The position numbers were made by a program, and so were the translations under genes. 64,000 nt of DNA from an uncultured Bacilli bacterium (GTDB lineage Bacteria > Bacillota_I > Bacilli_A > RF39 > UBA660): the NCBI GenBank assembly GCA_944363925.1, contig CALVVS010000001.1, positions 450-64,449 on the forward strand, written 5' to 3'. Below are positions 1 to 63,227 of the stretch, piece after piece. The notes below the pieces were generated by a model. That model was not told the DNA's origin. It did no database searches and saw only the letters and a program-made list of their open reading frames with translations. Within the stretch, counting starts at the first letter, position 1; each line of letters starts with the position of its first letter.

Positions 1-3000
1 GATGGTCCATCATGTTTCATTGCCTCACTAATCGCTTTTATCGTCTGCATCATATTAGCCCCAAGTGATACCTGCGCCACATAAACATTTGGATAAGCCA
101 TTGCTATCCTAGCAAAATCTTTTTTGTAATTCTTCTTTCCGTGAGATGCAAACTGCGCCACCATACCTTCCGGCGTCGCCTTCGAAGCCTGACCACCAGT
201 ATTTGAATATACCTGCGTATCTAAAACTAAAATATTAATATTATCTCCACTAGACAAAACATGGTCAATTCCACCAAAACCAATATCATATGCCCAGCCA
301 TCGCCACCGATAGCCCACACGTTTTTAGCAATAATATAGTTCTTAAGTTCCCTTAATCGTGGATGTTTATCATAATTAACCTTGTCATAAACCTCTTTCG
401 TAGTAGCATAATCATTAGAATTATTAAGCCACTTATCAAATAGTTCATCCCTATTATTAAGCATATACTCCCTAACCATATTCTTGCCATACTCAAAACC
501 ACTTAACATACCATAGCCAAATTCCGCATTATCCTCAAATAAACTGTTAGCCCATGAAACACTGTATGGCGCATTTGGAAGCTCCCCTCCATAAATAGAA
601 GAACATCCTGTCGCATTCGCAATCACTAAACTGTCCGAAGCAAGCTGCGTAAGTAACTTAATATAAGCTGTCTCCCCGCATCCTGCACAAGCTCCATGAA
701 AAGCAAACTTAGGAGAAATAAGTTGACTTCCCTTAATAGTCTCCTTCTTAAAATTATCCTTAACAGAAACATTTTTAACCAAATAATCAAAAATCAAATC
801 ATTTTTACTATCCGCAAGCTTGCCAAAAGCCAAAGCCTTTTGGCCTCTCAAACCAGGACATGTATTTATACACACCCCGCATCCCGTACAATTCTTCGCC
901 GAAATACCAATAATATAATAATAATTAGGCGCACCAAACGCCGGCTTGCACCTTTCCTTAACATATAAAGGCGCTTTTTCATACTCCAAAGCATCAAGTA
1001 AAAATGGTCTAATAACCCCATGTGGACACACAAGCGAACACATACTGCACTGCGTACAATTTTCTAAAATCCATTCAGGCACAAACTCCGCAATATTCTG
1101 CATCTCAGGTTCCGTATGTATAAACGTTCCGTCTTCATGTCCCTTAAAATCAGAAACCTTAAGTTCATTACCCTTCCTGTGCTCCAAAGCTGAATAAATA
1201 TCATAAACATCAAAATTAAGCTCCGCATCCACATCATCTAACTCTATCTTTCTAAATGAAACATCCTGCAAAGCCGCAATATTATTTAAAGCAACCTCCT
1301 TGCTTTTAACCCCAAACTTTCTCATAACATAATCTTCAAGTTTAAGTAAAGCCTTATCCGTATCCACAAAATCGATAAACTCAAACATCGCTCTTTCCAT
1401 AATCATACTTATCTTCCGGCCCAAATTATGCTTTCTAGCAATCCCATCCGCATCAATCACATATACCGAAATATCATTATTCCTCAAAAACTTCTTATAT
1501 CCCTTTAAAGCCTCCAAAAGAGCAGTATCATCCATAGACGTATTTATCAAAAGTGTGCCACCATGTTTAAGTTTAGTAACTGCATCAAATAAAGATAAAT
1601 AAGTATCCTTAGCAATAAGCACTAATTCAGCACTATTCACAAAATAAGTCGACCTTATAGGTCTATCTGCAAACCTTAAATGACTGCAGGTCACACCACC
1701 TGACTTTTTAGAATCATACTCAAAATATCCTTGAACATACTTGTCCTCGCAAATACTAAGTAATGACTTGCTAGAACTAATCATCCCATCACTGCCATAG
1801 CCATACACTAAAGCCTCAAAACAGTCATTAATATCAATATCATCATAATTCAAACTCAAATTAGTCACATCATCGTCAATACCAATTGTAAACTCTTCCT
1901 TCGGTTCATCCAGCATATCATAAATAGCCTTAATCATGCCAGGTGTAACATCCTTACTAGAAAGGCCATAACGACCATGACAAATAACAATATCTTTACC
2001 CTTCAAACAGCTAACCACATCTAAATATAAAGGCTCACCCGCACTACCAGCTTCCTTAGTCCTATCTAATACCGCAATCTTACTTACACTATCAGGTAAA
2101 ACATCTAATAAAAACTCCGCACTAAAAGGCCTATATAAATGAACCTCAATAAGACCAATCTCTGAAGAAGAAAAATCTATAAACTCCTTAATCGTCTCAC
2201 AAACAGACCCCATAGCTACAATAACCTTCTTAGCCTTTAAAGATCCATAATAATTAAAAGGTTTATAATTAGTCCCCGCAAGCGCATTTATCTTATCCAT
2301 ATAATCTTTAACAATCAAAGGTACCCTATCATAAAACCTATTCCTCGACTCCGTCTCCTGAAAATAAATATCTCCATTTTGATTAGTACCCCTAGTAACC
2401 GGTGCCTCATTATTTAAAGCTCTCTCCCTAAACTCTTCTAGTTTTTCCACCTGAATAAGCTTTTTAATTTCCAAATTATCAAGTAAATTTATCTTATTAA
2501 GTTCATGACTAGTTCTAAAACCATCAAAGAAATGTAAAAATGGCAAAGAAGCTTCTATACTAGCTAAATGACTAACTAAAGCCAAATCATAAGCCTCCTG
2601 AACAGAAGACGATGCCAGCATACAAAAACCCGTACTCCTAGTCGCATAAATATCCTGATGGTCCCCAAAAATGCTAAGAGCATGCGTCGCCAAAGAACGC
2701 GCCGCCACATGAATAACACAAGGCAGCATCTCACCTGCAATCTTATACATATCTGGAATCATCAAAAGTAAGCCTTGACTAGCTGTATAAGTCGAAGCTA
2801 AAACACCCATCTGTAAAGCACCATGCACTAAGCCAATAGCCCCCGCTTCACTTTGCATCTCTATAACCTTTGGTACTGTTCCAAATATATTTTCTCTGCC
2901 TTCTGCTGACCACTTGTCAATAAGCTCTGGCATCGGACTAGAAGGGGTAATCGGATATATTCCAAGCACCTCACTAAACAAATACGAAGCCTGCACGCAA

Positions 3001-3031
3001 GCTTCATTACCATCACAAACTATCTGTTTCA
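1..3031 (-). CDS. nifJ: Pyruvate:ferredoxin (flavodoxin) oxidoreductase. The N-terminal roughly 1010 aa are present; the C-terminus runs off the window edge.
   Basis: Minus-strand translation from ATG at 3029-3031 (RBS GGGAGTG upstream) gives MKQIVCDGNEACVQASYLFSEVLGIYPITPSSPM. Downstream are two ferredoxin-type Cys clusters (CTGCGVC..CP) and the TPP motif GGDGWAYDIGFGG near nt 300. It is not in the ORF track because there is no stop codon within the window. Confidence 0.9.
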
Positions 3032-3043
3032 TATAATCACTCC

Positions 3044-3466
3044 CTATTTATGACAATCATCATCTGGATTGACAAAATTAACCGTATATTCAAAATCACT
3101 ACCATTACTAGTTGTAATAACCACGCTGTCACCATCCGCATAAGGCTCATCTGTCATTGGATTTTCTAACTCATCTTCTATATAGCCACCTTTAATAACC
3201 TGACCATTAATCTCACCGCCATCGTGTAATACACTAACCGCAATCGAAACTGACCCCGAAGCATCCGGAAGTATCTCAGGATAATCAATAGCCACCATCT
3301 TCGCCGCATCTATCAAATTAGTCTTTTGAACAGTGCAAGTATCAAACCGGCTTTGTTTCAAATTACTATCAATCGCTCCTACTGCTATAAGCCCTAAAAT
3401 ACTTAAAATAACAATAACTCCAAGTAACTCCGCCAAAGTAAAGCCATTGCGTAAAGCCTTCTTCAA
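3044..3466 (-). CDS. Type IV pilin/pseudopilin-like protein of 140 aa, either fused in frame to the rpe 3' end or started internally at TTG 3464-3466.
   Basis: The C-terminal 140 aa of ORF 3044..4081 read (L/M)KKALRNG-FTLAELLGVIVILSILGLIAVGAI. This is a class III (prepilin) signal: short basic leader, Gly, Phe+1, Glu+5, hydrophobic helix. It ends with a Cys-containing globular part (..TCTVQ..DDDCHK). AGG lies 9 nt upstream of the TTG. Confidence 0.6.
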   Translation of the reverse strand: MKKALRNGFTLAELLGVIVILSILGLIAVGAIDSNLKQSRFDTCTVQKTNLIDAAKMVAIDYPEILPDASGSVSIAVSVLHDGGEINGQVIKGGYIEDELENPMTDEPYADGDSVVITTSNGSDFEYTVNFVNPDDDCHK

Positions 3467-4081
3467 TTTATAAACCTGACTCTGATAATTATCACTATCC
3501 GTAATAAATGAACCAGCCACTACTATATCAGCTTTTTTAACCAGCCTTATAGTCGTATCATTAATACCGCCATCAACCTCTATCAAATAAGATAAATTAT
3601 TCTCTTTTCGGTAGTGCAAAAGAATATCAAGCCTTTCCGTAATATCGATAAAAGACTGCCCGCCAGCTCCCGCCTTGACACTCATCACTAAAACTAAATC
3701 TATTATATCTAAATATGGATAAATATCCTCAAAATTACTCTTCGGATTAATCGCTAGACCCGCTTTAATTCCTTTTCCGTGAATATAATTAATAACATCT
3801 AAAACATCATCTGCCACCTCAATATGAAAAATAATATAACTAGGTTTTAAAAGTGCCACCTCATCGACATACTTTTTAATATCCTCAACCATTAAATGAA
3901 CATCAAAAGGCTTTTTTAAAGATAAAATTGCACCTTTCATTTTATCCAAAGATAAAGTCGCCTTCTCTGTAAACTTTCCATCCATAATATCAAAGTGAAT
4001 TAAATCACAAACTCTATCTAACTCCCTTATCTTCTCAAAATCATTTTGAATTTTCAAAAAAGACCCCGCAACCTTAACCAT
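3467..4081 (-). CDS. rpe: Ribulose-phosphate 3-epimerase. This is the Rpe portion of a 345-aa ORF that continues in frame into a pilin-like domain.
   Basis: MVKVAGSFLKIQNDFEKIRELDRVCDLIHFDIMDGKF..., HLMVEDIKKY, SVKAGAGGQSF, EVDGGIND are a typical Rpe TIM-barrel. It sits after rsgA, as in the Bacillus yloN-prpC-prkC-cpgA-rpe operon. Confidence 0.85.
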
Positions 4082-4093
4082 TTAATAATCACC

Positions 4094-4921
4094 TCATTTT
4101 AAGAAATTCACATAGTTATCATATCTGCTTTTTAAAATTGTCCCATCTAAAACCTTTTCTTTCACTAAACACTTTTTCTCGTGAATATGAAAGCAATCTC
4201 TAAACTGACAGCCATCTCTGTAAAGATTAAACTCTGTAAAATTATCCTTAATATCCTCTTTACTCATGCCAGTAAACTCCAAAGCCGAAAAGCCAGGTGT
4301 GTCAGCCACCATCCCATCGCATAACTCTATCAGCTCCGTATGCCGAGTAGTATGCTTACCTCTGTTTAAAGCAAGCGAAATCTCTCCAGTTTTAAGCTTT
4401 AAATTAGGACTAATTCTATTAAGTAAAGTCGATTTCCCAGCTCCACTTTGACCAGTAAACGCACAAACTTTTCCAGCAAAAACCTTTTTAATAGCTGAAA
4501 TATCATCGTTCATATAAACCTCATAACCAATTTTATCATAATAATCAATTATCGGTTTTATTTTTTCCATTTCTAAATCACTAAGCAAATCAGCCTTTGT
4601 AAAAACAATCACTGGTTTAACCCTATTATATTCACAAATAACCAAAAATTTGTCGAGTAAATTAGACGAAAAATCTGGTCTTTTCAAGCTTGTAATAATA
4701 AACATTACATCCACATTCGCAATCGCTGGCCTATGAAATTCATTTCGTCTAGGTAAAATATCTAAAATATATTTATCCTCTAAATCAAATATAACCTCAT
4801 CGCCAACAATCGGTGAAAGGCCGAGATTTCTAAACTTTCCCCTAGCCTTACACACAAAATCACCTTCACTACATCTTACCGTATAATCATTGCTTATCTG
4901 TTTAATAATCTTTCCTTGCAT
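4094..4921 (-). CDS. rsgA: Ribosome small-subunit-dependent GTPase A (RsgA/CpgA/YloQ)
   Basis: Circularly permuted GTPase with G4 TKADLL before G1 GQSGAGKSTLLN. It has the C-terminal zinc motif CQFRDCFHIHEKKC. Confidence 0.9.
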   Translation of the reverse strand: MQGKIIKQISNDYTVRCSEGDFVCKARGKFRNLGLSPIVGDEVIFDLEDKYILDILPRRNEFHRPAIANVDVMFIITSLKRPDFSSNLLDKFLVICEYNRVKPVIVFTKADLLSDLEMEKIKPIIDYYDKIGYEVYMNDDISAIKKVFAGKVCAFTGQSGAGKSTLLNRISPNLKLKTGEISLALNRGKHTTRHTELIELCDGMVADTPGFSALEFTGMSKEDIKDNFTEFNLYRDGCQFRDCFHIHEKKCLVKEKVLDGTILKSRYDNYVNFLK

Positions 4922-17668: not shown

Positions 17669-18484
17669 TTACTTCCTATAATAAGTACTAGACATCCTAT
17701 ACTCGCCATCTTCTAAAACTAAAGCTATCACATTACCAGATACATCCAAAACCTCTTTTTTAGAAGCATCAGTCCAATTAATACCATCAAAACTATATTT
17801 ATAGCTGTAATTATCACCATCTGGATACTCAATTATTAAACCATCCCCATCTTTAAATTGAATACCATCTATAACCTTAATAAGCCTTTTTTTAGTAACC
17901 TCATTTCCCCTTCCATCAGTTGCCTTACACTCTATAACGTAATTACCAACCTCTGCTTTCAAAGTATTCTCACATCTAAAACTAACCTCACCAGAATTAT
18001 CTGTCGCTATAACTCCATCAGATACATCATAACTAAAAACCTCATCAGTTGTAATTGTCACTGCCGAAGGAACCACCAAACGTGGTTTTTTATTATCCGT
18101 AACAATAACCACTCTTTTAAGCTCTTCTAACTCACCTCCATAAGAAGCTTCGTATTTGACCATATAATTTCCTACCTTCGTCGTATCAATCGAACTAACC
18201 TGCCTGTCATCTAAATAATAAGATATAGAAATCAAAGGTGAAACTTTTTTACCATCAAAATAAGCCACCGCCTTCATCTCTTCGTACTTATCATTTATTC
18301 CCACATAAGTAATAAAATTACCATTTAATACTAATCTAAGACCATCTTTTGAAACATTTTCATTTTGAACAATTTCCTTAGCCTCTGGCCTATTTAAATA
18401 ATCAATAATTCTATTTCCAATAAACAAAATAATCAAAAAAATAGTAATCAACGTAACTAGACCTACTAACCGTGCCTTTCTCAT
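17669..18484 (-). CDS. N-terminally membrane-anchored surface protein with bacterial Ig-like domain(s). It lies immediately downstream of two pilin genes and may be pilus-associated.
   Basis: MRKARLVGLVTLITIFLIILFIG anchor, then a beta-rich region with a DUF5011-like Ig segment (..VTITTDEVFSYDVSDGVIATDNSGEVSF..GNYVIECKATDGRGNEV). Confidence 0.55.
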   Translation of the reverse strand: MRKARLVGLVTLITIFLIILFIGNRIIDYLNRPEAKEIVQNENVSKDGLRLVLNGNFITYVGINDKYEEMKAVAYFDGKKVSPLISISYYLDDRQVSSIDTTKVGNYMVKYEASYGGELEELKRVVIVTDNKKPRLVVPSAVTITTDEVFSYDVSDGVIATDNSGEVSFRCENTLKAEVGNYVIECKATDGRGNEVTKKRLIKVIDGIQFKDGDGLIIEYPDGDNYSYKYSFDGINWTDASKKEVLDVSGNVIALVLEDGEYRMSSTYYRK

Positions 18485-18488
18485 AAAA

Positions 18489-18923
18489 TCAGTCCTTATT
18501 CATATTAGCAATCGTGCAGCTATCCGCATCGTTAATATTTTCATTAATCACAATCTCTTTAGATGAAGCTCCTTTTACCACGCAAATATGCGCACTATCA
18601 CTCCATAAAGCAAGCTTCACCTTACCATTTTCATCAATCTCAAACTCTCCCGCATCTGGAAGTTCACCATCCGTTTTAAGTAAATTCTTAACATCATCTG
18701 AACTAGTCTTATAATTAACTAATAAAGTAGGACTTTCATTTAAAGCTTGCTTCTCAGCTTGATAAGTACCAGCTGCCACAACAAGTCCATGCGCTGAATT
18801 AATAAAAGCCTTTTCCCTAGACGACTGAATAACATCTATCACAATTGGCGCTGTTACCACTGCCACAATCGCAATAATCGCAATAACTGCCAGTAACTCC
18901 GCTAAAGTAAAACCTTTTTTCAT
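18489..18923 (-). CDS. Type IV pilin / competence-type pseudopilin. Start at MKKGFTLAELL; the ORF track extends further upstream.
   Basis: MKKG-FTLAELLAVIAIIAIVAVVTAPIVI class III signal peptide. C-terminal Cys pair (HICVV...SCTIA). Confidence 0.8.
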   Translation of the reverse strand: MKKGFTLAELLAVIAIIAIVAVVTAPIVIDVIQSSREKAFINSAHGLVVAAGTYQAEKQALNESPTLLVNYKTSSDDVKNLLKTDGELPDAGEFEIDENGKVKLALWSDSAHICVVKGASSKEIVINENINDADSCTIANMNKD

Positions 18924-18924
18924 A

Positions 18925-19290
18925 TTACTGAGCCTCCTCAACACTATAAACAAACTCCGTCTCACCAACTTTTTCAACGCAAACCTGCGTTAACTGTGAA
19001 AAATCTTCATTTGTCTTTGGGTTTTTAATATCAACAGGTAAATAACCATTACTCTTTAAACTCTCAAGACTTTGGCATGCCCTATCCCCAACATTAGAAG
19101 GCATCTCCTCTAAGTGCTGCGTATAATAATCTTCTCCACCTTTTTTTATCTGTTCGATTTGCGTTTCATATAAATCTTCTCGGCCACTATCTAAAGAACG
19201 GTTAATCGCCGGCACAGTAATAAGTGCAATAACTCCAAGTATCGCAATAACTCCAAGTAATTCTGCTAAAGTAAAACCACCATTTCTCAT
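18925..19290 (-). CDS. Type IV pilin / pseudopilin. Start at MRNGGFTLAELL after RBS AGGTGA.
   Basis: MRNGG-FTLAELLGVIAILGVIALITVPAI prepilin signal. C-terminal Cys pair (RACQS ... QVCVE). Confidence 0.8.
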   Translation of the reverse strand: MRNGGFTLAELLGVIAILGVIALITVPAINRSLDSGREDLYETQIEQIKKGGEDYYTQHLEEMPSNVGDRACQSLESLKSNGYLPVDIKNPKTNEDFSQLTQVCVEKVGETEFVYSVEEAQ

Positions 19291-19364
19291 ATCATCACCT
19301 ATCATAATTATACAACATTTTTATTTCTAAACAAAATAAAAAGTAACTATTTTTCATAATTACT

Positions 19365-21353: not shown

Positions 21354-22433
21354 TTACTTTCTGTGCGCATACTCTTCTTTAACCTCATCATTACTAATTC
21401 CAAACCTTTTTAAAAAGTTATTACCAGATAAAATCAAATAATTAAACCCTTTATGGTCTAAAGTCACCTTATTAAAAATCAAATAATTCAAACGCGCATA
21501 ACTAAGTTCAGCTCCTTGAATTAAATAAGAAGGCCTTTTTAATATCTCTCTTTCTAAAGAAACATCCATCAAAATATCTATTTTTTTATTCAAAGTACTA
21601 ATCGAATAACTATATACATTTGGCAATTTTAAAGTAATAAAAATAGTCTCCTCAGCGGAATATCCCTTACTTAAAAAACAATTAAAAGTCTCTTTTATAT
21701 TCTCTAAACTTAACGTATAAATAGCTGGATTAACACCTGTAACTATATTAATCTCATCTTCACTATATCCAAACTCTTTTAAACACTGTCTTTTACTTTC
21801 CATCCTCGAAATATTCATCACAATAATATTTGAATTTCGGTAAATCATCTTAGCTAATCTATCAGTATCATAACCTTTTGAAAGTAAATAATCATAATTT
21901 TTCTTTAAAAGCTCCAAACTACAAGTATAAATCATCGGCGAATCTTTAATTATTTTATTAATTTCCTTATCATTAAACCCTAAATCCTTAAAGAAATTCC
22001 TTTTATCATTAATTGCATCTACAGATAAACTAAATAAACTAGGAAGCATCACCGTAAATTTATGAACCATACTATTAGAATAACCATAACCTTTTAAAAG
22101 CTCTAACTTACTTAAAATAAGACCCTCGCTAATAGTTAGTAAAGCAGGTAAAATAATAACCATATTTTTCACTTCAGCCTCGCGATATCCAAGTAACTTC
22201 AAAAAGCTAAAACGTTCATTTAACGTTTCAGCTGGATAATTAAACAAAGTTGGATTTAAAGTAGTCATTAAAATAATTTGTTTATTATCATATCCTCTAC
22301 CTTTTAAATAATTAAAAGTTTTAACAACTTTCTTCTCTAAAGTTTCTCTAGCAAGCCTTTTAACCGCATGACTATTAATAATTTTCTCTTGAGCACGCTT
22401 ATCATACCCTAAATTACTTAGTACATCTGACAT
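21354..22433 (-). CDS. mTERF-like helical repeat protein (putative nucleic-acid-binding)
   Basis: At least eight tandem roughly 35-aa repeats of the form L(K/L)xxG(Y/F)sxxxIxxIIxxxPxLLxxSxExLxxxxxFL, for example LKEFGYSEDEINIVTGVNPAIYTLSLENIKETFNCF. This matches the mTERF motif. Confidence 0.6.
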   Translation of the reverse strand: MSDVLSNLGYDKRAQEKIINSHAVKRLARETLEKKVVKTFNYLKGRGYDNKQIILMTTLNPTLFNYPAETLNERFSFLKLLGYREAEVKNMVIILPALLTISEGLILSKLELLKGYGYSNSMVHKFTVMLPSLFSLSVDAINDKRNFFKDLGFNDKEINKIIKDSPMIYTCSLELLKKNYDYLLSKGYDTDRLAKMIYRNSNIIVMNISRMESKRQCLKEFGYSEDEINIVTGVNPAIYTLSLENIKETFNCFLSKGYSAEETIFITLKLPNVYSYSISTLNKKIDILMDVSLEREILKRPSYLIQGAELSYARLNYLIFNKVTLDHKGFNYLILSGNNFLKRFGISNDEVKEEYAHRK

Positions 22434-22860: not shown

Positions 22861-23052
22861 TTATTGGCAAGTTCCCTCGCCTGGCTTAGACCCTTCGACA
22901 TATTCTTTATCGATAAGTTTGCAAGATGTTTTTGTCATAGAGTCTTGAAGATAGCCCCCCAATAGTTTGACTAAACTAACGACTACTACACTAATAACCG
23001 CTATGATTAGTAAATATTCTACTAGGGCTTGACCTTTATTATTTAATTTCAT
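22861..23052 (-). CDS. flp: Flp/Fap-family (Tad-type) pilin, 63 aa. Start at MKLNNKG with RBS GGAGGG; the ORF track starts further upstream.
   Basis: MKLNNKG-QALVEYLLIIAVISVVVVSLVKLL carries the Flp prepilin motif G-xxxxEY followed by a hydrophobic helix. Confidence 0.75.
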   Translation of the reverse strand: MKLNNKGQALVEYLLIIAVISVVVVSLVKLLGGYLQDSMTKTSCKLIDKEYVEGSKPGEGTCQ

Positions 23053-23188
23053 AACACCCTCCACAAAAATATCATAACTTACATCAATTATAATTTTTTT
23101 TGGAAGAAAAATCAACCCCATTAGCAAAAAACAAACAAATTTAAAGACAAAAAAATAAAAATGTGTTAAGATAAATTAGGTGAGAAAA

Positions 23189-23479: not shown

Positions 23480-24361
23480 TTAAGAACTTACGACATATGG
23501 ATCAGATTGTGTTCCACTTCCAGTCAAAGTAATTTCAGAACTTAAATATAAGACTGGGCGAACCGCAGTGTTCGTATCATCCGCACCGTAGTAGTCGTGG
23601 ATGCTGCCACTCTCAACACAGAACACAGTGTAAGAGTTGTCAGAATTAGGTGACAAAGTCCACCAATAGTCATTTATATACATCCAAGTTGTATTTTTAC
23701 ACTTATTATAATTATCATCGTTTAAATTAAATGAACCACATTCACTTTTATTGCTATTTGTTCTGATATATTCACTTACTGTAGGTAAAGCTACTTTCCC
23801 GTTCAATTTTATTCCGTTTTCATTATTTATTTGTTGAGCTAAATCATTATTATCATTTGTTATTGTACCGATACTCCAGTCTTTTGCTACAATCTGACTT
23901 TTAGCAGTGACATTTAACCCATTATAATATGTCCCATTTAAGTATGTATTTAAACTTGCTGGTCTGGCCCAATTACTAATATTAGAACTATCCCACGCCA
24001 TCCTTTCTATATATGCTTGTCTCATTATTTTTATTGTCCCATCACACTCAACTGAGATTATTCTCCATCCAGCAGTTTCATTATTAAAAGTGACATAATT
24101 ATTTGGATTAGCTCCTGTAAAGAAATAACGACACTCATAAGGGTCTTTCTCTAAATCTGCATCTTCAATTACTTGATCACCAGCACTTGGAAAACACACT
24201 CCATATAATTCATCGATAGCTCCTTGCACATTGGTACTTGAAAGACCACTTTCTTTATTATCATATGTAACATCATTAGATGGAAAATATGTCTCCGCAT
24301 ATACAGCAACTATTCCTACTGACACAAAACCAAGTATAAAACCAATCAAATATTTTTTCAT
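23480..24361 (-). CDS. Secreted Asn/Tyr/Trp-rich protein of unknown function, preceded by a coupled 8-codon uORF and a long homopolymeric tract
   Basis: Signal peptide MKKYLIGFILGFVSVGIVAVYA. It has an NVQGAIDELYGVC motif and no strong RBS of its own. Confidence 0.6.
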   Translation of the reverse strand: MKKYLIGFILGFVSVGIVAVYAETYFPSNDVTYDNKESGLSSTNVQGAIDELYGVCFPSAGDQVIEDADLEKDPYECRYFFTGANPNNYVTFNNETAGWRIISVECDGTIKIMRQAYIERMAWDSSNISNWARPASLNTYLNGTYYNGLNVTAKSQIVAKDWSIGTITNDNNDLAQQINNENGIKLNGKVALPTVSEYIRTNSNKSECGSFNLNDDNYNKCKNTTWMYINDYWWTLSPNSDNSYTVFCVESGSIHDYYGADDTNTAVRPVLYLSSEITLTGSGTQSDPYVVSS

Positions 24362-62552: not shown

Positions 62553-63227
62553 TTATTCTTCTTTGTATTTATAAATCTTATATGAAATCTTATAACTAAT
62601 AAAATAAAGGATAAAACTTAATAGTACAAGAATAATCAAACCAAAATTTTTTAATGCACTTTCTAATTTTGCAATATCAACTGAAAGTCCAGATTTTTCT
62701 ATAAGAAAGCCTACTCCTACCCCTATAAGTGCTAAAACAAATATAACAATAAACATTTGAATTCTTCCTTTTTCGGCCCCCCATTTAAAAATACTAGGAA
62801 TTTGAATTGTCTCTATAAGAGATACTCCAAAAAATCCACCAATAGTAGTAGCAAGTAATGTATCAATACTTATATCTATAACTTTATCTGGTCTTACATA
62901 ATTCATAATATTACCAATTAACAAAGTTAGTACAAAACCAAGTAAACTTCCTAATATAGTTGCTCCAATAGCCAAAATATATTTTTCTAATACTATTTCT
63001 TTTCTAGTCACTGGTAAAGTTAATATATATCTATTTGATTTTGCCATTTCATCATAACTAAATGTCGAAAGTGAAATCATCCCTACAATCATGCCAATTA
63101 CAATAGAACCCCAGTATATAGCATCCGTTCCAATAATCGCCATACCACAAAATAACACAACTATAATTAATGTAGTTTTATAACTGGCTAAATTATATAA
63201 ATCCTTTTTAAGTAATCCTTTTATCAT
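62553..63227 (-). CDS. ABC-2-type transporter permease
   Basis: 224 aa with six TM helices, immediately downstream of an ABC ATPase. Confidence 0.7.
   Translation of the reverse strand: MIKGLLKKDLYNLASYKTTLIIVVLFCGMAIIGTDAIYWGSIVIGMIVGMISLSTFSYDEMAKSNRYILTLPVTRKEIVLEKYILAIGATILGSLLGFVLTLLIGNIMNYVRPDKVIDISIDTLLATTIGGFFGVSLIETIQIPSIFKWGAEKGRIQMFIVIFVLALIGVGVGFLIEKSGLSVDIAKLESALKNFGLIILVLLSFILYFISYKISYKIYKYKEE

Follow-up and report, generated by a model that had tools for sequence, protein, structure and literature searches.

A complete ribulose-phosphate 3-epimerase in front of a class III prepilin signal: a conserved and recurrent gene fusion in uncultured Bacilli

In a stretch of 64,000 nucleotides from an uncultured Bacilli bacterium (GenBank assembly GCA_944363925.1, contig CALVVS010000001.1, positions 450 to 64,449; hereafter the window), the gene encoding ribulose-phosphate 3-epimerase (Rpe) continues in frame into a sequence encoding a type IV pilin-like domain. 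A first, sequence-only reading of the window had left two options for this arrangement, a natural Rpe-pilin fusion or a minor pilin gene nested in the end of rpe and read from a non-ATG start, and had also considered an erroneously lost stop codon. We asked whether the two coding parts really form one gene, whether the pilin can still be made on its own and, if not, how an enzyme and a pilin could both come from a single product. The architecture is real, conserved and recurrent in a group of uncultured bacteria of the gut.

The fused open reading frame (ORF) occupies positions 3044 to 4081 of the minus strand, with its ATG start codon at 4079-4081 and its TAG stop codon at 3044-3046, and its translation of 345 residues contains, in this order, Rpe, a class III signal motif and a pilin head. 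The observation that the rpe ORF runs past the normal end of Rpe was correct, as no stop codon follows residue 212. Residues 1-212 (3446-4081, minus strand) form a ribulose-phosphate 3-epimerase domain with a (beta/alpha)8 barrel, as judged from profile matches, structural alignment and a model. The Pfam family Ribul_P_3_epim (PF00834) covers residues 7-193 (E-value 2.8e-42, 144.8 bits for a cutoff of 21.1) and the NCBIfam model NF004076, ribulose-phosphate 3-epimerase, covers residues 3-209 (180.7 bits, cutoff 165); the TIGR01163 equivalog gave 160.1 bits, under its cutoff of 212.6. Comparison with the end of known Rpe proteins, as had been proposed, placed the boundary clearly: residues 13-218 of the best solved Rpe, that of Streptococcus pyogenes (2FLI, 220 residues), align with the fused protein and the alignment stops at query residue 210. 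Because it reaches residue 218 of a 220-residue chain, Rpe ends just before the pilin motif. Up to Gly213 the Rpe part also has the length of a free Rpe (204-214 residues at unfused loci, 220 in 2FLI). His29, Asp31, His62 and Asp170, which we take from Rpe structures to be the metal-binding and catalytic His/Asp/His/Asp set, align with 2FLI and are invariant in alignments of 34 and 51 sequences. In the AlphaFold model of the full-length fused protein, with a mean predicted local distance difference test (pLDDT) of 92.2, the barrel shows 8 strand/helix repeats with pLDDT above 90. Compared with a canonical Rpe such as 2FLI, the protein shares the full-length alignment, the His/Asp/His/Asp set, the TIM barrel and the operon position, but it differs by 133 extra C-terminal residues forming a prepilin.

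The second half starts with a short junction, Lys207-Lys-Ala-Leu-Arg-Asn-Gly213 (3443-3463, minus strand), which is basic, resembles a prepilin leader and ends in Gly(-1); its form KLKK[ASVC][LI]RNG is conserved in 21 species. The reading frame here is ...KLKKALRNG|FTLAELLGVIVILSILGLIAVGAI..., without a stop codon, and Gly213|Phe214 is the predicted prepilin peptidase cleavage site. The hydrophobic alpha1-N segment FTLAELLGVIVILSILGLIAVGA follows (residues 214-236; 3374-3442, minus strand), with Phe at +1 and Glu at +5, and would serve to anchor the protein in the membrane as well as to assemble the filament. The remainder (residues 237-345; 3047-3373, minus strand) comprises alpha1-C and the globular pilin head with a conserved Cys249...Cys343 pair. 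The initial description of a class III signal peptide followed by a Cys-containing pilin domain is supported by this pair and by the suggested search for an N-terminal methylation profile, in which PF07963 N_methyl matched residues 211-233 (23.2 bits, cutoff 21.2) and TIGR02532 IV_pilin_GFxxxE residues 211-234 (20.9 bits, cutoff 16.3). The segment has a hydrophilic stretch ending in Gly/Ala, about 21 hydrophobic residues and Glu at +5, as expected for a class III motif, but instead of the usual N-terminal placement it begins only after a complete Rpe, at residue 211-213 of 345. When the pilin part was modelled alone with AlphaFold (pLDDT 88), it adopted the lollipop shape of type IV pilins, with a long alpha1 helix (5-55) packed on a 4-5 stranded antiparallel beta-sheet. 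In the full-length model a non-helical hinge, RNGFT, separates the last Rpe helix (199-210) from the alpha1 helix (216-266), and pLDDT falls to 70 over residues 211-220, at the predicted cleavage site. A Foldseek search with the pilin structure gave no significant match. The GspG (TIGR01710, 24.2 bits for a cutoff of 88.85), ComGC (18.7, cutoff 75) and ComGD (16.2, cutoff 70) equivalogs all scored under their cutoffs.

An ORF of this kind could arise from a frameshift in sequencing or assembly that deleted the rpe stop codon, or the pilin could be a dead remnant drifting as a C-terminal extension. The junction does contain an A-rich stretch, and annotation pipelines name the protein only 'ribulose-phosphate 3-epimerase', which would be compatible with such an origin. 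We searched 5.8 billion proteins clustered at 90% identity. Results showed that the fused ORF is present in about 74 protein clusters, with lengths of 316-359 residues, query coverage of 97-100% and identity decreasing from 99% to 46%; below them the match list drops to ordinary Rpe proteins of 205-215 residues that cover only 60% of the query. The exact window protein is not on record, and the 99%-identical cluster representative P0001 was used in its place: six different assemblies encode it, each on one contig, and the gene order is always rlmN-prpC-prkC-rsgA-[345 residues]-PFOR, the last being the pyruvate:ferredoxin oxidoreductase gene. Moreover, in a scan with one genome per species, 33 of the 80 species-level loci fetched carried the fused ORF, all from uncultured Bacilli/Bacillota, including Candidatus Coprosoma sp., Firmicutes bacterium CAG:822 and complete chromosomes of metagenome-assembled genomes (MAGs) of 1.3-1.5 Mb (for example OZ007022.1, OZ007038.1 and OZ007025.1).

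We also looked at selection on the two halves within the window clade, the fused clade of 21 species to which the window belongs. The pairwise ratio of nonsynonymous to synonymous substitution rates (dN/dS) was 0.11-0.27 for the Rpe part. For the pilin part, 9 of 10 pairs gave 0.07-0.28; the outlier (0.58) was the nearly identical pair L017/L020, which has very few substitutions. Both halves are therefore under purifying selection. A stop codon in close relatives with the DNA otherwise conserved, which would have pointed to an error, was not found. The two-gene state occurs only in more distant relatives and the junction there differs, having an ATG and a ribosome-binding site; it therefore represents a genuine second arrangement and does not speak for an error. 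A slippery-site or frameshift reading was set aside as well: the A-runs of the junction are not conserved (AAATTGAAGAAGG in the window) and off-frame stop codons are expected at the 31% G+C of the window. Six independent assemblies of one species, at least 33 species including long-read complete MAG chromosomes, dN/dS well below 1, conserved motif residues and Cys pair and a confident fold leave a negligible probability for artefact or decay, which the comparative data effectively refute. Of the options raised at the outset, the natural fusion is the one that stands: this is a genuine, evolutionarily retained gene fusion.

How did the fusion arise? A search with the pilin part only retrieved free-standing pilins of 126-138 residues, of the type MNKK[GA]FTLAELLGVIV..., with 41-56% identity, and their genes occupy the identical site between rpe and PFOR, in the order rlmN-prpC-prkC-rsgA-rpe-pilin-PFOR. 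The window has the same surroundings. The 5' neighbours of the fused ORF are rlmN, prpC, prkC and rsgA, and its Shine-Dalgarno sequence, read as GAGGTG at 4090-4095 (minus strand), lies 8 nucleotides 5' of the ATG and overlaps the end of rsgA. On the other side PFOR (1-3032, minus strand) begins 11 nucleotides after the stop codon and extends beyond the window edge; its start was confirmed at 3032, in agreement with the description of the pilin-like part as wedged in front of this gene, and it is the downstream neighbour in both fused and unfused relatives.

The unfused rpe-pilin pairs (for example L002, or L023 of Candidatus Coprosoma intestinipullorum) are thus orthologous to the two halves of the window protein, share their operon position between rsgA and PFOR, and encode a pilin with the same fold, Cys pair and FTLAELLGVIV helix. 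They consist, however, of two ORFs with an 8-nucleotide overlap, and the pilin has an AGGAGG, an ATG and a leader of 3-5 residues (MNKK|A/G), whereas in the window the start codon, the ribosome-binding site and the rpe stop codon are gone and Rpe replaces the leader. In L002, rpe encodes 211 residues ending in ...NLRRSLNE*, the pilin has 136 residues, the overlap is ATGAATAA, and AGGAGG lies inside rpe, 7 nucleotides before the pilin ATG. Its junction reads CTA AGG AGG AGT TTA A ATG AAT AAA AAA GCC TTT ACC, and that of the window TTG AAG AAG GCT TTA CGC AAT GGC TTT ACT. The interval from TTA to TTT is 7 nucleotides (3n+1) shorter in the window, the ATG and the rpe stop are absent, and the Shine-Dalgarno sequence has decayed to GAAGAAGG. 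The fusion therefore goes back to a short deletion where two translationally coupled genes overlapped. In the ancestor a small type IV pilin gene followed rpe directly, shared 8 nucleotides with it and was equipped with a ribosome-binding site and an ATG; a short deletion of 3n+1 length within the shared region (net 7 nucleotides relative to L002) then eliminated the start codon of the pilin together with the stop codon of rpe and brought the two frames into register.

Neighbor-joining (NJ) trees built separately from the two parts, Rpe and pilin, agree for the most part, therefore the rpe-pilin pair has been co-inherited for a long time. The window clade is uniformly fused. Other fused taxa are scattered among unfused ones in the NJ trees (L039; L030, L033, L034 and L041; L050 and L072; L036; L038; L040) and their linkers vary in sequence and length (KLRGN|GF, IRKD|AF, LKKAL|GF, LKEVFT|GF and others). 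Because of this scatter and of the different linkers, the data indicate that fusion (or its reversal) took place independently some six times or more, an approximate count as it comes from NJ trees only. The direction suggested is from unfused to fused, because the fused L040 keeps an AGAGGT relic without a start codon. The fusion point invariably falls inside the leader, and no fusion has lost Gly/Ala(-1), Phe(+1) or Glu(+5). Among the 31 fused loci scored, position -1 is Gly in 29 and Ala in 2, with Phe at +1 and Glu at +5 in every one of them; across 51 fused proteins, F214, T215, L216, E218, V222, I223 and C343 are invariant and G213 and C249 are conserved at 90% or more.

We then considered whether the pilin can start on its own, so that two products would be made, a pilin from an internal start (TTG at 3464-3466, minus strand, or another non-ATG codon) and the read-through fusion as a by-product. 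The TTG proposed in the sequence-only reading is present in the window, as the codon of Leu206, with a weak AGG upstream and GAAGAAGG as a relic of the ancestral ribosome-binding site. It is not conserved as a start codon: in the 21 species of the window clade the Leu206 codon is TTA in 12, TTG in 5, CTA in 3 and CTT in 1, so that only 5 of 21 have a possible start at this position, and in 10 of 21 there is no ATG, GTG or TTG within 12 codons before Gly(-1). The sole ATG near the window junction (AATGGC) is out of frame. Shine-Dalgarno strength, expressed as the best duplex energy with CACCUCCUU, had a median of -2.7 kcal/mol (range 0 to -4.1) at the 21 fused loci of the window clade, where no in-frame start is conserved, against a median of -9.75 kcal/mol at the 20 unfused loci, all of which have an ATG 2-4 codons before Gly/Ala(-1). 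An internal promoter or terminator within rpe was discarded, as promoter-like sites were no more frequent than by chance (7 against 5.6 +/- 2.5 expected, none above chance). Because both the ATG and the ribosome-binding site have been lost in the window clade, the pilin is there, on the evidence of these sequences, translated only as a C-terminal extension of Rpe. In another fused lineage (L033, L034 and L041, with the junction ...LRGIFMNK|GF) an in-frame ATG is still present together with a Shine-Dalgarno sequence, AGGGG or AAAGG, so that the pilin may be made separately too, giving dual products. For the window, we regard a pilin nested behind the TTG, or any second product from an internal start, as distinctly improbable.

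Prepilins are inserted with a cytoplasmic leader (positive-inside rule) whose length varies and whose last residue is Gly or Ala, and prepilin peptidase cleaves at the cytoplasmic face of the membrane (PMC10191384); a cytoplasmic domain at the N-terminus is therefore topologically compatible with a class III signal. The basic stretch KLKKxLRN, immediately ahead of Gly213, is in keeping with this cytoplasmic N-terminal side. A pilin carrying a 23-kDa cytoplasmic domain cannot leave the membrane for a filament; therefore, cleavage would be obligatory for a pilin half that functions as such, which the pattern of selection suggests it does. On balance we lean towards a scheme in which Rpe is a 213-residue cytoplasmic 'leader' that prepilin peptidase would cut off, yielding an Rpe of normal length and a normal pilin. 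Rpe would fold in the cytoplasm, and from membrane insertion onward we infer the following steps: the alpha1-N helix would act as an internal N-in/C-out signal anchor, with translocation of the pilin head; the peptidase, whose active site is on the cytoplasmic membrane face, would cut after Gly213; and soluble Rpe (213 residues) would be freed together with a mature pilin starting with FTLAELL..., ready for the filament. The peptidase would thereby be a polyprotein-processing enzyme. Cleavage would also account for the repeated, harmless origin of the fusion.

The rpe-adjacent orthologous pilin is modular in three unfused relatives, L048 (6004-8412, 803 residues), L052 (6001-8007, 669 residues) and L063 (143-1789, 549 residues), which carry at the C-terminus a Beta_helix module, a Listeria-Bacteroides repeat with an Ig module, and a DUF285 module, respectively. 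Because these modules are adhesin-like, they argue that the rpe-adjacent pilin would be displayed outside the cell. The same locus has thus had two fates: in some species the pilin was fused at its N-terminus, in others modules were grafted onto its C-terminus.

Several observations weigh against processing by a prepilin peptidase. Motif scans of the 64-kb window and of some 944 kb of related loci detected no prepilin peptidase, extension ATPase or platform protein; regular expressions for the Walker A motifs of GspE/PilB/PilT and TadA-type ATPases and for the GxGDxK motif of A24 peptidases, run on the window and on all fetched loci, matched only UvrA, ABC ATPases and one unidentified 736-residue ORF in L025. 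We know of no experiment in which a prepilin peptidase cuts with a folded domain of about 23 kDa placed 3-10 residues from the scissile bond, and steric hindrance of the peptidase is possible. Interactions unrelated to cleavage might, in principle, be what keeps Gly(-1), Phe(+1) and Glu(+5) conserved. In addition, the starts retained in L033, L034 and L041 mean that fusion as such need not imply processing.

The scans that detected no pilus machinery also speak for another possibility, that the protein stays uncleaved as a bifunctional membrane protein whose pilin-like helix tethers Rpe to the inner membrane face, the external head having a role independent of filament assembly or the pilin part being only an anchor. 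The very short linker between the last Rpe helix and Gly213, which could block the peptidase, and the stability of the fusion over long evolutionary time would also fit. However, invariant Glu(+5), Gly/Ala(-1) and Phe(+1), seen in 31-51 fused sequences of several origins, are not expected in a plain anchor, and purifying selection on the head is as strong as on Rpe. Moreover, sister genomes have the pilin free-standing or with adhesin modules, and tethering would probably constrain the Rpe oligomers of solved structures (2FLI, 12 chains per entry). We consider an uncleaved, tethered Rpe rather unlikely.

We return to cleavage and to its fullest form, for which the case seems to us evenly balanced: a folded Rpe would serve as leader, and a single product would be inserted into the membrane and split by prepilin peptidase, one fragment being a soluble enzyme of the pentose-phosphate pathway and the other a pilus subunit. 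Rpe would then exceed every other class III leader in length by a wide margin and would be natural proof that such a signal can lie elsewhere than at the N-terminus. The fusion would have arisen repeatedly since cleavage makes it harmless, or useful as a way of coupling expression where genomes are streamlined (1.3-1.5 Mb).

The window contains further candidate pilins. Two tandem prepilin genes lie at 18489-19305 on the minus strand (18925-19305, and 18489-18923 counted from its ATG), with N_methyl scores of 26.5 and 25.8 bits (cutoff 21.2). Their N-termini had been described as nearly identical to that of the fused pilin; the two pilins exist and are similar to it, but only 17 and 11 of the 24 mature N-terminal positions are identical. 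They probably belong to one filament system with the fused pilin. The pair lies directly downstream of nusB-xseA-xseB, with no pilus machinery nearby, and is followed by a membrane-anchored Ig-like surface protein of 271 residues (PF16403), the whole stretch covering 17669-19305 (minus strand). The pilin genes of this genome appear to be scattered behind housekeeping operons.

An ORF of 88 residues at 22861-23127 (minus strand), MKLNNKGQALVEYLLIIAVISVVVV..., showed matches below the gathering cutoff to Flp/Fap (PF04964, E-value 2e-4) and to the archaeal-type Class_IIIsignal (PF04021, E-value 3e-3). It may be a Flp/Tad-type prepilin, in which case this genome would encode two kinds of substrate for prepilin peptidase. 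Near it, a DUF6273 protein with an N-terminal hydrophobic segment is encoded at 23480-24361 (minus strand), and another DUF6273 protein is found just after PFOR in the window's own species (L084, 11545-12456). A regular-expression match to an internal prepilin at 62553-63227 was a false positive, a multi-pass membrane protein beside an ABC-type ATPase. The window also encodes, at 21354-22433 (minus strand), a protein of 359 residues with a strong match to mTERF (PF02536, E-value 1e-33, three stretches). This family is mainly known from eukaryotic organelles and is unusual in a bacterium.

To place the fusion among its relatives, a pilin profile was searched against 1.84 billion representatives, giving 3,381 family members at E-values of 1e-10 or lower. 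Among the best 150 of these 3,381, the pilin module is almost always found at residues 2-16, often with long C-terminal extensions, and many representatives have 200-1672 residues with the module at the N-terminus. A folded domain before the pilin module was seen, among these 150, only in Rpe fusions or their fragments (P0010, P0135 and P0138). In P0121 and P0216 short unassigned stretches, of 35 and 28 residues, precede the module. In two metagenome proteins from short contigs, P0122 (192 residues) and P0121 (200 residues), the same pilin (71-81% identity) follows an unrelated N-terminal sequence; P0122 matches PF10926 and retains 'KLKKALRNGFTLAEL'. Both are probably chimeric assemblies or truncated gene calls and not further fusion partners.

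Two known systems come close to the fused protein. Known long leaders of prepilins have about 15-30 residues and are not known to have a fold or a function of their own. They occur in type IVb pilins and in Streptococcus sanguinis PilE1 and PilE2 (PMC10191384), and resemble the arrangement of the window in being hydrophilic, cytoplasmic and variable in length and in being cut by the peptidase after Gly/Ala; here, however, the 'leader' would be a folded enzyme of 213 residues. Modular pilins combine an N-terminal IPR012902 motif with extra C-terminal modules (Raynaud et al. 2021, PMC8179133). As in S. sanguinis PilB and PilC, the window's pilin is joined to a domain that is not specific to pilus biology, and relatives from its own family do carry classical C-terminal modules (Beta_helix, Flg_new, DUF285); L048, L052 and L063 are modular pilins by this definition. 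In modular pilins the class III signal is N-terminal and the extra module is C-terminal and extracellular, whereas in the window protein a cytoplasmic housekeeping enzyme precedes the signal, on the side removed by cleavage, so that no display on a filament is possible and the protein falls outside the definition. Full-text literature searches returned no Rpe-pilin fusion, no enzyme upstream of a class III signal and no enzyme-sized leader.

Pilin finders and the published survey of modular pilins inspect the N-terminus only. Rpe-fused pilins are therefore invisible to them and are annotated as plain 'ribulose-phosphate 3-epimerase'. The locus is a clean case of recurrent gene fusion from translationally coupled, overlapping genes, and fused, unfused and C-terminally modular states of one pilin are available for side-by-side comparison. 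If the fusion is processed, prepilin peptidases accept a folded 23-kDa leader and can mature a polyprotein, which would widen the substrate range of the family and provide a simple natural system for studying how these peptidases recognize their substrates. The most interesting implication of the architecture, if true, would be the peptidase-mediated release of an enzyme-sized leader.

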